From the NCBI GenBank assembly GCA_963809485.1, contig CAWEJX010000002.1, positions 1-12,786 of the forward strand: a stretch of 12,786 bases of DNA, written 5' to 3'. The translations under genes were made by a program, and so were the position numbers. Below, in pieces: positions 2,616-6,911 of this stretch. The notes under the pieces were generated by a model. That model saw only the letters and a list, made by a program, of their open reading frames with translations, did no database searches and was not told the origin of the DNA. Position 1 is the stretch's first letter. Every line of letters begins with the position of its first letter. Source of the DNA: an uncultured Acidobacteriota bacterium. GTDB taxonomy: Bacteria > Acidobacteriota > UBA6911.

Positions 2616-2624
2616 TTGGAGTTC

Positions 2625-3119
2625 ATGCGCTTGGCATTAAAAAAGGCTCGCTCTTCCATCGACGAGGTCAACCGCCTGCTCGAGGATTACGCGAAGCGCG
2701 GCGTTTTCCGGGGATTCAGCCGGCAACCCGTGCGGCACGGCGCCGCAGCGTTCAAATTGGTTTGGTTCCACAATTGTGTTTTCGACCTGATTGTGGACAG
2801 GCGGAAGAAAACCATCTCGATCCCTGTTGTCTTGCCTCGCGTGCCGGCCGATATTTATCCGAATTTCAAAGCGTTCGTCCATTCCCACCATGACGAGAGC
2901 CTGCCGGAGCACCGGCGGACCGAAAAAGCCAAAGCGCGTCTGCGATGCTCGAAAAACCACGGCAATGCATCTATCGGAATTACGGTCCGCGATGGTGATT
3001 ATGCGTATGCGCTTCAGAGACTCATCCACCTGGTTCACGAAACCTTTGTGATTTATCTGTTGGACGGGAGATACCGCGATTACGTGGTTGAGCAGCTCGG
3101 CGCCAATCCCGAATGGTAG
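2625..3119 (+). CDS. Hypothetical protein (~164 aa), probably co-transcribed with the ThDP enzyme
   Basis: Starts within 10 bp of the upstream stop (GGAG at 2618-2621; TTG 2616 or 2631 are alternative starts). Protein-like composition with alternating helix/strand pattern; no family recognised. Confidence 0.78.
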   Translation: MRLALKKARSSIDEVNRLLEDYAKRGVFRGFSRQPVRHGAAAFKLVWFHNCVFDLIVDRRKKTISIPVVLPRVPADIYPNFKAFVHSHHDESLPEHRRTEKAKARLRCSKNHGNASIGITVRDGDYAYALQRLIHLVHETFVIYLLDGRYRDYVVEQLGANPEW

Positions 3120-3153
3120 ATAGGCTACTTTTTCCCTGGCGCGTGCATCGGAC

Positions 3154-3222
3154 GGCTCTGGGGGCCCCTCCTCCAATTTTAACGCTGACGTACGCCGATA
3201 AACGCTGACATACGCTGAAAAA
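3154..3222 (+). repeat. ACGCTGA 10-mer repeat element, copy 2 (4 units)
   Basis: GGCTCTGGGGGCCCCTCCTCC-AATTTT-AACGCTGACG-TACGCCGATA-AACGCTGACA-TACGCTGAAAAA; exact 10-bp period. Confidence 0.9.
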
Positions 3223-3232
3223 ATATATAAAT

Positions 3233-3257
3233 CTAATCCCTAATCGCTAATCACTAA
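3233..3257 (+). repeat. 7-bp tandem repeat (CTAATCN)x3.5
   Basis: CTAATCC-CTAATCG-CTAATCA-CTAA, immediately 3' of tRNA-His. Confidence 0.85.
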
Positions 3258-3264
3258 GAGAGGG

Positions 3265-3341
3265 TGGGGTGAGCGACGGGGATCGAACCCGCGGCCGCTG
3301 GAGCCACAATCCAGAGCTCTACCAGCTGAGCTACGCTCACC
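3265..3341 (-). tRNA. tRNA-His (anticodon GUG) with encoded G-1 and CCA
   Basis: Reverse complement G-GTGAGCG-TA-GCTC AGCTGGTA GAGC-T-CTGGA TT GTG GC TCCAG-CGGCC-GCGGG TTCGATC CCCGT-CGCTCAC-C-CCA; G-1:C73 is the bacterial His identity pair. Confidence 0.97.
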
Positions 3342-3406: not shown

Positions 3407-4588
3407 CTATTCTCCCAGCAAAGTCTGCCTCAGCGCATTCATCGCCGAGGGCTCCGTTATTGCCACGACCGTGTCATTCGCCTGCAGTTTGCTGTCGCCG
3501 GTGACAATCTGGGACTTGTTGCCCCGCACGATGGCCGTCAGCAGGCAGCCTGCGGGCAGGTTCAAATTGCGTATCGGAACGTTCAGCGCCGGGGAGTCCG
3601 AATGCAGCTGGACCTCCACCACTTCCAGGTTGCCGCGCCGCAGCAGGGAGAGCGGTACGAGATCGCTCGTTGCAACTTCCTGCTCAATCAACTGGTACAT
3701 CAGCCTCGTGGCGCTGATGGTCTCCTCAATTCCCAGCTTGTGAAACGTATCCTCGTTGGCCGGGTTGTTGACTCGCCCGATGGCGCGCGGCACGCCGAAC
3801 CACCGTTTCGCCGCCTGGCAGATGATCAGGTTGTCCTCATCGTCGCCGGTAACGGCAACCACCAGGTCCGCGCGCTCCATTCCCACCTGCACCATCGTCC
3901 GTATTTCACATGCATCGCCGAAAAACACCGCCTCGCCCAGTTCGTCGTGCAGCGCGTGAAAGCGCAGCGGCCGCTTTTCCAGGATCAGCACTTCATCGCC
4001 CTTGCTCAGCAGGGCCCGCCCGAGGTTATGTCCGACCTTGCCGCCGCCGGCGATGATGATGTAGTCCGGGTGGCCGTTCTTGCGGCTGGCGCGCTTCTCG
4101 GCGAGCTGCTTGGGCGTGGGCAGGTTTGCCGCATATAGACGATGCATCTGGTGCGTCAGGTCCCAATATTGATCAATGCTCTGGTAAGCCCGGCCCAGCA
4201 GCCGGTCATGGAAGATGCCCGCTCCAAGAGTCGTGATGCACAGAGTCTCGACTCCCACTTCGCGATAGATTTCCGCGCGCAGTGGGTCGTAGATGCGGGC
4301 CATCACACGCGGCACCTGAAACAGGGTCTTGGCAATCTGCGCCGCCATGATGTTGGTGTTGTCGCCGTTCGTCACCGTGAGGAAAGCATCGGCATTTTCG
4401 ATCCCTGCCTCGCGCAGCACATCGGCGTTGATGCCGATCCCGTTGATGGCGCGCCCGCTGAAATTTTCACCCAGCCGGCGGAATGCGGAGGTGTCCACGT
4501 CTATAATGCTTACATCGTGACCTTCGGAACTCAGCATCAAAGCCAGAGTCGAACCGACGCGGCCGCAGCCCAAAATTACCACACGCAT
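3407..4588 (-). CDS. trkA: TrkA/KtrA-family RCK regulatory protein; fusion of two modules (RCK_N - linker - RCK_N + RCK_C), 393 aa
   Basis: MRVVILGCGRVG...IDVD...AGIENADAFLTVTNGDNTN, then a ~40-aa linker, then YIIIAGGGKVG...ADLVVAVTGDDEDN and an RCK_C-like end (DSPALNVPIRNLNLPAGCLLTAIVRG...GDSKLQANDTV). GGGAG SD upstream. Confidence 0.9.
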   Translation of the reverse strand: MRVVILGCGRVGSTLALMLSSEGHDVSIIDVDTSAFRRLGENFSGRAINGIGINADVLREAGIENADAFLTVTNGDNTNIMAAQIAKTLFQVPRVMARIYDPLRAEIYREVGVETLCITTLGAGIFHDRLLGRAYQSIDQYWDLTHQMHRLYAANLPTPKQLAEKRASRKNGHPDYIIIAGGGKVGHNLGRALLSKGDEVLILEKRPLRFHALHDELGEAVFFGDACEIRTMVQVGMERADLVVAVTGDDEDNLIICQAAKRWFGVPRAIGRVNNPANEDTFHKLGIEETISATRLMYQLIEQEVATSDLVPLSLLRRGNLEVVEVQLHSDSPALNVPIRNLNLPAGCLLTAIVRGNKSQIVTGDSKLQANDTVVAITEPSAMNALRQTLLGE

Positions 4589-4610
4589 GATCGTTCACTC
4601 CCGGCGCCGG

Positions 4611-5164
4611 TTAGCCCGGCACGCTGTCTATCAGAACTTCACAGGGCGGGCGCCGCATCAGCGCATCCGCAGTCCTTGTGAAAATGCTGGGCAGATGCCG
4701 CTCCACGGCCTGCACTCCCAGCACGACGATGTCGCCGCTGTATGTCTGCACAAGCTGGCCAATCCCCTCGCTGGCTTCGCGAGAACGCAACGTCGTCGTC
4801 ATGGATTTAAGGCCATGCCGTTCGACGATGTTCTGAGCATTTTTCAGCGCCTGCTGGGCTCGATCCTCGACGTCGGGCGGAAGCGGAGAATTCAGCGTCA
4901 CCAGGCGCGGCACCTCCACGACATAGGCAAGCACAATGCCGGCGTTCTGCTGCTTTCCCATCCGGCAGGCCAGTTCCACGGCTCTCTCCGTATAGAACAG
5001 ATCCAGGATAGGAACTATGATGCAGCGCGAGGCCTGCACGGAGAAGACGGCCCTGGCCACTTCCTGAGTCATAGCCCTGCGGCAGCCGCAGCATCCAAAA
5101 CAGAGTCAGCCCGAGGATGGCGGCAAACAGAAAGGCAATCAGTAACACCTAACGGATGAGGCAT
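4611..5164 (-). CDS. Universal stress protein (USP); core 4611-5072, with a probable N-terminal membrane anchor interrupted by two apparent +1 frameshifts
   Basis: Core shows the USP pattern IIVPI...AVELACRM...IVLAYVVEVP...GDIVVLG...TADALMRRPPCEVLI. Upstream, SD GAGGTGAT + ATG 5164 gives MPHPLG(V); the next frame gives LIAFLFAAILGLTLFWMLRLPQ; the next gives AMTQEVAR. The core is confident; the 5' extension is inference. Confidence 0.8.
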
Positions 5165-5172
5165 CGCGGCGA

Positions 5173-5361
5173 TCACCTCTGGCGCAGATAGCGCCAACGA
5201 GTAAAACCCAGCGCGAACACAAGCGCACCGACAATCAAGGCCTGAATGGTGCCCTGCCAGCCTAGTCCCTTCCGGACCGTGAATTGCAGGCCCCGGAGAA
5301 GCATGGCGGCACCCAACACCATGAGAAGAATTGCCATGATTTTTCGAAATCGGATCCACAT
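5173..5361 (-). CDS. Small membrane protein, 62 aa, two predicted TM helices
   Basis: Hydrophobic segments IMAILLMVLGAAMLL and IQALIVGALVFALGF with basic termini; its ATG overlaps the permease stop (TGATG). Confidence 0.75.
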   Translation of the reverse strand: MWIRFRKIMAILLMVLGAAMLLRGLQFTVRKGLGWQGTIQALIVGALVFALGFTRWRYLRQR

Positions 5362-6911
5362 CAGGGCACCACGGTTTTTGAAGTGGAACCGCCGGCTTTT
5401 TTCTTCCGCTCCACTTCAATTTTGAACTGCTCCAGGAGTTCCCACTCCCCTGTATCCGCCAGGATCTCCAGCTGCTCCGCATCCCAATCGTGCGGGGTGC
5501 TCCGGAAAATGGGCAGTTTGCTTTTATACCGATACCAGATGTAGTATCCCACCCATGCCGCCACCCACAAAGGACCCAGGACGCGCGCGACCGCGTGAGT
5601 CCACAAAACGATGACGAGCATTCCCGCCGTCCCCAGAATGGCCAAAAATCCGAGCACGGGAATGTCCTTGCCCCGCCACTGAATATTGAGCGGCACGCGG
5701 TACGCCCGCGGCGTGCGCGGCTCGCGGATCCTCAACGCCACCAGGGCCATGCTCGCAAGGAGATATGCCAGCATGGCGCCGAAGGCGTACATATCCGCCA
5801 TGGTCTCTAGAGCCCTCTCGCCAGTCAGGAAACCAAACAGGGCTTCGAGCGCAGCAACGCATGCGAAGACCACGATGGCGCGCACCGGCGTGTGGTACTT
5901 GTGATGAACATGGGACAGCCACTTCCCGATGAGGCCCATTTCGGACATGCTGTATGCCAGCCGGCTGCAGCCCATAACACCCGTATTCGCCGAAATCAGC
6001 ACAATGGTCGCGGCAAGTACTGCCGCGATGGGACCGGCGAGAAATCCTATGTAAGGCAATTGGCTTGCAAGGTGCGCGACCGGATCGCCTTCGCGCGATG
6101 CAAGGTCCTGCCACGGAAGAATTCCCAGGCTCACTACCGGAAACGCCATGGCAAAGAGCAGGACTACCACGATCAGTGCCAGCGAGGTTCGAGGTATGAC
6201 TGTTCCCGGGCGGATCGTCTCCTGAGCAGCCTGAGACACGGACTCCAAACCGACAAAGGAAATCACCGCGATGCTGACGGCATAAAGGATCTGTTTGGTT
6301 GGAGGGAACGCCGTATGCCACTGGTGCAGGAAAAGGTCCGGATGCCAGGCGAAGGCAAATCCCAGAATCACGATGGAGGCTTCCATCGCCATATCCAGAA
6401 CGCCCAGGATTTCGTTAAACAGCGACGATTCGCGGACACCCTTAATATTAAGCACGATCAGGAAGCCGATAAAAACCATCGACTCGGCAAGCCAGATCAG
6501 GTTCACATGGTGGAAGGGACCAAAATCGACGGCAAAATTTCGGATGGCCGGGAAGAAGAAATTGACGTATCCTGCTGAGGCCATGGCAAACAGCGCGATG
6601 TCGACCGTGTAATCCAGCATGAGCGCGGCACCCGTCACGACGCCCCAGAAGTCGCCCATGCCACGGAAGGCAAAATACTGGCCGCCCCCTGCAACAGGAT
6701 AGGCCGCAGCCAATTCCGTGTGCGCCAGGCCCACAAAAATGTAGACGATGCCGGCGATCGCAAAAGCCAGCGGCGTGGCGCCCTGGGCCGCGGCGATGAC
6801 CAACCCTAGAGCGACGTAGACATCGGCTCCGACATCCGCGTAACCCCAGGTAAACGATCCCCAGACCGTGACCTGCCGCCTCAGCTTGACCTTCGGTTCC
6901 TGCGTTGCCAT
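5361..6911 (-). CDS. APC-superfamily permease, KUP/KimA-like candidate K+ transporter, 516 aa
   Basis: ~12 hydrophobic segments; APC motifs ELAAAYPVAGGGQYF, LNIKGVRES, GLESVSQAAQE, SRLAYSMS, HHKYHTP. KUP/KimA-like motifs GYADVGADVY, LMLDY, GLES, MYAFG. Start moved to ATG 6911 (GGAG upstream). APC call is firm; K+ specificity is inference. Confidence 0.88.
   Translation of the reverse strand: MATQEPKVKLRRQVTVWGSFTWGYADVGADVYVALGLVIAAAQGATPLAFAIAGIVYIFVGLAHTELAAAYPVAGGGQYFAFRGMGDFWGVVTGAALMLDYTVDIALFAMASAGYVNFFFPAIRNFAVDFGPFHHVNLIWLAESMVFIGFLIVLNIKGVRESSLFNEILGVLDMAMEASIVILGFAFAWHPDLFLHQWHTAFPPTKQILYAVSIAVISFVGLESVSQAAQETIRPGTVIPRTSLALIVVVLLFAMAFPVVSLGILPWQDLASREGDPVAHLASQLPYIGFLAGPIAAVLAATIVLISANTGVMGCSRLAYSMSEMGLIGKWLSHVHHKYHTPVRAIVVFACVAALEALFGFLTGERALETMADMYAFGAMLAYLLASMALVALRIREPRTPRAYRVPLNIQWRGKDIPVLGFLAILGTAGMLVIVLWTHAVARVLGPLWVAAWVGYYIWYRYKSKLPIFRSTPHDWDAEQLEILADTGEWELLEQFKIEVERKKKAGGSTSKTVVP

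Follow-up and report, generated by a model that had tools for sequence, protein, structure and literature searches.

A candidate potassium-uptake operon linking a KimA/Kup-related carrier to a universal stress protein and a TrkA-type regulator

The window analyzed here is a stretch of 12,786 nucleotides that makes up the entire contig C2 (CAWEJX010000002.1) of an assembly from an uncultured Acidobacteriota bacterium (GCA_963809485.1; 6.0-Mb genome, 95.7% complete, 7.3% contaminated). Four genes on its minus strand encode an APC-type permease, a small membrane protein, a universal stress protein (USP) and a TrkA-type regulator with RCK domains. The favored interpretation, with a probability of about one half, is that the permease is a proton-coupled K+ importer sister to the KUP family, with the USP as its control domain and an RCK ring that tunes the carrier. 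The permease is not a KimA or Kup protein in the strict sense, having neither an equivalent of KimA Y43 nor a fused domain and belonging to a family that is sister to KimA/Kup rather than nested within it, yet by analogy it probably works like them. Kinship, conserved gene order, potassium-type neighbors together with a riboswitch, and the behavior of the USP as a detachable domain support this KimA/Kup-like reading. It is rather probable that the substrate is K+, and a contact between the USP and the carrier, argued from related systems, is more probable still, while direct control of the carrier by the RCK protein, also argued by analogy, is placed slightly below even odds. The four genes are as follows.

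5361..6911, minus strand: permease of APC/LeuT fold, 516 residues, from a sister family to KimA/Kup; site residues D26, D30, Y32, V33, D100, D104, E223 and Y375
5173..5361, minus strand: 62-residue protein with two hydrophobic segments; its start overlaps the permease stop; no family above cut-off
4611..5164, minus strand: membrane-anchored USP (Pfam PF00582), 183 residues in relatives; frame disrupted in the window by one additional base at each of 5143 and 5079; from 5072 onward the USP core is open
3407..4588, minus strand: RCK_N-RCK_N-RCK_C regulator, 393 residues; Pfam TrkA_N twice plus TrkA_C; matches to PDB entry 3L4B

The genes are as tightly packed as a preliminary description of this DNA had stated, with a TGATG overlap at 5363-5359 and 22 bp between the USP and RCK genes. 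Its statement that the window holds no TrkH or KtrB gene also stands, since Pfam shows none among the 11 window proteins.

Relationship of the permease to KimA and Kup

The permease has a LeuT/APC fold with 12 membrane helices. Pfam identifies it as an amino-acid permease, the third protein as Usp and the fourth as TrkA_N (twice) plus TrkA_C, with nothing above cut-off for the 62-residue protein; no NCBIfam model reached its cut-off for any operon protein, the permease included. Alignment with KimA/Kup and with amino-acid carriers of the APC type, a check proposed in the preliminary description, supports kinship with KimA/Kup. Trees put the permease family beside KimA/Kup (support 92/89), as a sister and not nested in two trees and with its position unresolved in a third, and an approximately unbiased (AU) test rejects a grouping with CAT-like amino-acid carriers (p 0.0005). 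The trees were built without a mixture model and gave long-branch warnings for Kup, AroP, YjeH and PlaP; the partial family member L157 was left out, and one tree used 22 of the 46 representative proteins. PF02705 (KUP) has no match anywhere in the source genome, permease included, and the KimA-like protein L056 is likewise without a listed PF02705 match.

The permease was said to end about 55 residues after its last helix, with no large cytosolic domain, and this agrees with the AlphaFold model, in which the last membrane helix ends at residue 463 and the remaining 53 residues include two short helices. The term 'split KimA' used for this arrangement is apt as regards kinship and the USP as a detachable cytosolic domain; it is inapt in that the permease represents a sister family rather than a KimA orthologue and that the clade has no Y43 equivalent.

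Putative ion-binding site

All four motifs that had been picked out (YADVGADVY, LMLDY, GLES and MYAFG) are present in the permease, and the KimA sites D36, D117, E233 and Y377 are kept as D26, D100, E223 and Y375. In transmembrane helix 1 (TM1), D26 aligns with the Kup aspartate D23, has a range offset of +10 to KimA D36, and is Asp in 29 of 31 close members; MAFFT put KimA TM1 out of register, so that the link between D26 and KimA runs via Kup and the structure ranges. The TM6 glutamate E223 and the TM10 tyrosine Y375 are each found in 31/31 close members. Relative to the KimA site there are two added aspartates, D30 and D104, and the carboxylate-binding G-[ST]-G motif of TM1 reads G-A-D, with D26 and D30. 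In the permeases of loci L038 and L040, the latter without an RCK neighbor, D26 is replaced by Gly and D30 is kept.

Two of the earlier claims about these residues hold in part. An Asp/Tyr pair in TM1 had been matched to KimA/Kup: the aspartate aligns, but Y32 was rejected as the counterpart of KimA Y43 and the Kup tyrosine, since the wider family has two tyrosines in the motif, the second of which, seven residues after the Asp, matches Kup and corresponds to V33 here. The TM3 Asp-Tyr and the TM6 acid do lie at matching places, but they also occur in amino-acid and polyamine carriers and are therefore not diagnostic of KimA/Kup.

Conservation, gene neighborhood and riboswitch

A scan with one genome per species yielded 53 loci from Acidobacteriota, Chloroflexota, Nitrospirota, Zixibacteria, Bacillota, Actinomycetota and others, the nearest named relatives being Acidobacteriota assemblies at 97% identity; 49 loci were surveyed, leaving aside the short fragments L051-L054. 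A phylum search supplied a second set of 40 loci, half of them close and half more distant; the downstream DNA was sufficient in 39. The order permease, two-helix protein, USP, RCK recurs in at least six phyla, so that the proposed survey of APC, USP and RCK genes without trkH found the gene order conserved. Among the 37 loci of the first set with at least 2 kb downstream, the small protein (directly behind the permease) is present in 30, the USP in 31, an RCK gene in 24 and kdp-type genes in five; in the second set (39 loci) an RCK gene is found in seven and kdp-type genes in 15. RCK and kdp-type neighbors occur together in no locus of either set, and apart from trkH's own locus no fetched locus contains a TrkH-like open reading frame (ORF).

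In the loci listed below, the permease lies beside a KdpD-type kinase (DUF4118, often with GAF and HisKA) and a KdpE-type regulator and never with an RCK gene.

KdpD-type-kinase loci: L041, L042, L047, L048, L098, L099, L101, L103, L110, L118-L120, L122, L123, L125, L127, L135

Of the neighboring kinases scanned, 11/12 carry the KdpD membrane domain DUF4118, mostly without the N-terminal KdpD/USP part, and the separate USP may act in these loci as a stand-in for the missing kinase domain. In L031 and L032 (2/51 sources scanned) the permease gene is directly preceded by a cyclic di-AMP (c-di-AMP) riboswitch with a hairpin and a U-run behind it, in contrast to amino-acid riboswitches, which were found in this position in 0/51. 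No polyamine or amino-acid enzymes recur beside the permease in the surveyed loci, and some loci adjoin MgtE, Nramp, P-type ATPase or membrane pyrophosphatase genes.

Three further features of these loci were observed. A membrane pyrophosphatase gene is close to the permease or operon in L008, L010, L026, L033 and L050. In Anaerolineae and Thermoflexus loci (L003, L007, L011-L013, L015, L019, L022 and L027) a small NIL-domain gene stands between the USP and RCK genes. An APC group of about 620 residues with a Kup-like TM1 motif (L098:1805-3664, L099:1836-3929 and L101:1807-4065) is transcribed divergently from the family permease and branches with Kup/KimA, without a PF02705 match.

Universal stress protein

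The USP frame that starts at the ATG at 5164 is broken in the window at 5143 and again at 5079, each time by one extra base, and a third extra base (5167) is intergenic. Contig C5 of the same assembly, loci L002, L004 and L005 and the public contig X1 have no extra bases and encode an intact 183-residue USP with an N-terminal membrane helix. Contigs C5 (1-7789) and C16 (2-7519) repeat the window at 98.4-98.5% identity, each with its own single-base indels, and are probably strain copies in an error-prone assembly rather than true paralogues. The indels in the window are probably assembly errors, judging from the sequences, because kdpA, kdpB and the permease copies on C5 and C16 are also frameshifted in this assembly. 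A genuine pseudogene was judged unlikely in view of the intact copies in C5 and relatives and the frameshift-prone assembly.

The structure model of the L002 protein consists of a helix (residues 4-25) followed by a USP fold. Its best Foldseek match is the USP domain of KdpD (PDB entry 7JI4), which is at rank 10 in a wide VIA search; the KimA cytosolic domain is absent from the 50 matches listed, an absence that excludes nothing. Fusions of the permease with a USP are found in 29/41 long relatives scanned, and the frequency of such fusions supports the 'split' design.

RCK regulator

The regulator had been described as a double-RCK protein; an N-C-N-C arrangement as in TrkA was rejected, the order being RCK_N, RCK_N, RCK_C. 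The protein is a fusion of a TM1088A-like and a TM1088B-like half (PDB entry 3L4B, chains A and C, E-values 2e-26 and 5e-25), with the GxGxxG motif kept in both RCK_N domains. In most relatives the two halves are separate genes, and the fused form recurs frequently in the top 120 protein hits. Complex prediction with the permease (6-505), the USP and the RCK protein (1-305) gave a score of 0.00 in two runs with RCK as partner, which is evidence neither way. Of five genomes with an RCK operon and no TrkH, three have the operon pair as their sole strong RCK_N proteins, and in two a channel with a dedicated RCK is encoded as well.

Potassium genes in the source genome and across genomes

The proposed full-genome search for trkH/ktrB and diadenylate cyclase found both trkH and a diadenylate cyclase. 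The sole PF02386 match is trkH on contig C20, which has its own adjacent 451-residue trkA; a kdp cluster is also present, and Kup and KimA were not found in the source genome. The label 'pore-less' thus fits the operon but not the organism, and the claim of an RCK operon without TrkH/KtrB is borne out by the fetched loci, none of which holds a pore gene, but not by a source organism with trkA-trkH.

Among 45 genomes with the permease, TrkH is found in nine, Kup above cut-off in none, KdpA in 12 and a KimA-like match in seven. A sample of 401 genomes from one phylum, mostly incomplete and counted without regard to relatedness, contains the family in 64, TrkH in 142, KimA in 234 (a tally that takes in G305, flagged unpublished) and a CAT-like control in 16; Kdp and Kup were left out of this sample. 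The family overlaps with TrkH in 1/64 genomes (22.7 expected) and with KimA in 15 (37.3 expected), whereas the CAT-like control meets KimA as expected (10/16). For the close clade the overlap with KimA is 6/29 against 20.8 expected among TrkH-negative genomes. The family occurs in 48/73 genomes with neither TrkH nor KimA and thereby fills most of the gap in the sampled phylum, under a database label of amino-acid permease.

Proposed mechanism and alternatives

By extrapolation from KimA, D26 and Y375 would bind K+, with D104 standing where KimA has T121, E223 would accept the proton and D100 would mediate feedback inhibition; the outer gate that Y43 forms in KimA, lost here, may be replaced by D30 and Y32. 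As the fusions suggest, the USP, held by its own membrane helix and perhaps by the two-helix protein, would dock under the carrier like KimA's own domain. Four RCK fusions would form an eight-RCK ring, by comparison with TM1088A/B and TrkA, that reads ATP/ADP (or c-di-AMP) and would influence the carrier either directly or by way of the USP. In the source organism the operon would be one of three uptake routes, with TrkAH and Kdp. A more far-reaching proposal is tentative and would have odds against it: that an eight-RCK TrkA-type ring directly controls an alternating-access K+ carrier via a membrane-anchored USP adaptor, and that the family is a third, widespread KUP-type branch, the main K+ importer in many bacteria without Trk, Kup and KimA, able to plug into either an RCK ring or a KdpD-type sensor, which would explain two-subunit TrkA genes without TrkH.

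Many bacteria have TrkA-type regulators without a recognizable channel, and some lack any recognizable potassium importer. If the family moves K+, the annotation of thousands of proteins would change and a sister branch would be added to the KUP family; should the RCK ring act on the permease, a channel-type gating ring would be shown to control a carrier.

Several observations weigh against the favored interpretation. Y43, whose mutation to Ala abolishes uptake by KimA, corresponds to Val in 29/31 and Met in 2/31 close members (Tyr in 28/57 wider members). The T121 position is Asp in 30/31 close members (D104 here; Thr in 34/57 wider members) and the T230 position is Val/Ile (V220 here; Thr in 31/57), although neither residue is essential in KimA, and the extra aspartate D30 is invariant in the 31 close members. 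Similarity searches favor amino-acid carriers, with profile E-values of 1e-31 for GkApcT and 1.6e-7 for KimA and with KimA at rank 26 below amino-acid carriers in Foldseek; in the VIA structure search KimA leads ApcT by merely 1.5 Z. The putrescine carrier PlaP branches next in the trees, and its grouping with the family is not rejected (p-AU 0.09), in a test that used a single PlaP sequence and a group named after an earlier tree, the best tree separating PlaP from the family. The canonical ATP-binding motif of USPs is G-2x-G-9x-G[ST]; of 16 aligned proteins nearly all lack its second Gly, and in this clade its last Gly is replaced by Thr. The absence of an RCK gene nearby in 13/37 loci indicates that the RCK ring is not obligatory, TrkH is present in the source genome and in 6/25 RCK-operon genomes, no c-di-AMP riboswitch was found in the source genome, and the L031 and L032 proteins are near-identical and represent one lineage. 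The genome counts carry the limits given above, and the CAT-like control also avoids TrkH (0/16), so that the exclusion between the family and TrkH is at least partly a matter of lineage and is weakened as proof of a potassium function.

Of the alternatives, it is unlikely that the permease imports K+ while the RCK protein gates a TrkH, another channel or an antiporter encoded elsewhere and is merely co-transcribed for joint control. The presence of TrkH in some of these genomes and the frequent occurrence of the permease without RCK are consistent with this, as are the channels with their own RCK in 2/5 tested genomes, Na/H-exchanger-family genes in 4/5 and the partnership of TM1088A/B, the closest solved RCK pair, with TrkH in the available text of its description (PMC4380455). 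However, the trkH of the source genome has its own TrkA, which shares only 27-33% identity with the RCK protein of the operon, 19 of the 25 genomes with an RCK gene in the locus (including a single-chromosome assembly, G028) have no TrkH match, and the fetched loci are free of TrkH-like ORFs other than trkH itself. A changed substrate is also unlikely: the acidic site (D26, D30, D100, D104 and E223, without Y43) would carry polyamine, ammonium, sodium, a divalent metal or another cation under the same USP/RCK control, as suggested by site changes fixed in the clade, by PlaP as the nearest non-KUP branch with the TM3 Asp-Tyr in common, and by the MgtE, Nramp, P-type ATPase and membrane pyrophosphatase neighbors. 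Against this, kdp genes as neighbors and the upstream c-di-AMP riboswitch occur in this very clade, which also avoids KimA, and its neighborhood has no recurring polyamine or amino-acid enzymes.

Less probable again is a permease that is mainly a K+ sensor (transceptor), binding K+, transporting little and signaling to a KdpD-type kinase or to the USP and RCK proteins. The mutual exclusion of RCK and kdp-type neighbors, adjoining DUF4118-GAF-HisKA kinases that mostly lack the KdpD N-terminal/USP part, the KdpD USP domain as best Foldseek match and the loss of the outer-gate tyrosine would suit such a role; the invariant proton-coupling Glu, the low VIA rank of 7JI4 and the fact that the family fills the gap where both TrkH and KimA are missing, as expected of a bulk importer (in the sample that leaves out Kdp and Kup), argue against it. 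An ordinary amino-acid permease, with neighbors that are incidental or couple amino-acid uptake to the energy state, is very improbable: database names, the best NCBIfam and PDB sequence matches and the NIL-domain genes within the operon in several Chloroflexota point that way, but no NCBIfam model reaches cut-off, the TM1 motif is altered, the CAT-like grouping is rejected, and the neighbors and riboswitch are of the potassium type.

Other features of the window

Just downstream of the operon is a tRNA gene, which also follows the operon in close relatives and is probably not part of the module.

3265..3340, minus strand: tRNA-His(GTG)

A tRNA-Arg(TCG) gene lies at 135-211 on the minus strand. 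Positions 654-2615 encode a thiamine-diphosphate enzyme whose N-terminus bears a twin-arginine-like signal (TAT_signal match under cut-off), an unusual feature in that enzyme class, and a 167-residue ORF without a Pfam match follows directly (2616-3119). Between this ORF and tRNA-His, a short GC-rich repeat (3153-3235) recurs on several contigs at 85-95% identity. A promoter scan gave two sites against 1.8 expected, terminator-like sites were uninformative, and a search of public sequencing runs gave no RNA dataset among the matches listed (best share 0.17).

Comparison with known systems

The available text describes Bacillus subtilis KimA (YdaO) and E. coli Kup as K+/H+ symporters of the KUP family (PDB entries 6S3K, 8B70 and 8B71; PMC6994465, PMC10284832). 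The permease shares with them the LeuT fold, a matching TM1 Asp, TM3 acid, TM6 Glu and TM10 Tyr, a sister position in trees and, in two relatives, a c-di-AMP riboswitch; it differs in an identity of about 15%, the lack of PF02705 and the altered Y43, T121 and T230 positions in the clade. The USP corresponds in its broad fold class to the cytosolic domain of KimA, and its model also matches PPAT and 3G40, folds that the available text of the KimA paper names for that domain; unlike in KimA, it is a true USP and forms a membrane-anchored chain of its own, and the permease tail has 53 residues. The accessible parts of these papers report no linkage of KimA/Kup to a small membrane protein or to RCK proteins.

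TM1088A/TM1088B of Thermotoga maritima (PDB entry 3L4B) form a 4+4 ring with TrkH (TM1089) as partner, according to the accessible text (PMC4380455). The operon regulator resembles them in its RCK_N-only and RCK_N-RCK_C units, each half matching directly by sequence. It differs in being fused in this clade, in having GxGxxG in both halves (TM1088B is reported without a site in the text available) and in the absence of trkH from the loci.

TeaD of TeaABC (PDB entry 3HGM), which from its entry title we take to be the USP of a transporter operon, and the KdpD USP domain (7JI4) also tie the USP fold to transport, and both are among the best structural matches; their identity to the operon USP is 12-21%, and the latter has a membrane anchor. 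KefC and KhtTU are CPA2-type K+ exporters with dimeric RCK parts. Like the proposed system they place a secondary transporter under RCK control (KefC is matched by the operon RCK protein, and KhtTU is named in the available text of PMC10284832), whereas here an APC importer would be combined with a two-subunit TrkA ring, as predicted from the genes. GkApcT, of the CAT group (PDB entries 5OQT and 6F34), has the highest sequence similarity to the permease among solved structures; unlike the permease, GkApcT-like proteins have no TM1 Asp, no TM10 Tyr and an intact carboxylate-binding motif, and the CAT-like grouping is the one rejected by the AU test.

In the open literature, in so far as its text was accessible, there is no report of the permease/USP/TrkA/KimA/KdpD combination or of the permease family as a sister of KUP, and the accessible mycobacterial literature names no membrane partner of this kind for CeoB/CeoC. 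The combination, not found in print, appears to be new; relatives are known for each of its parts, and KefC and KhtTU are precedents for secondary transporters under RCK control.

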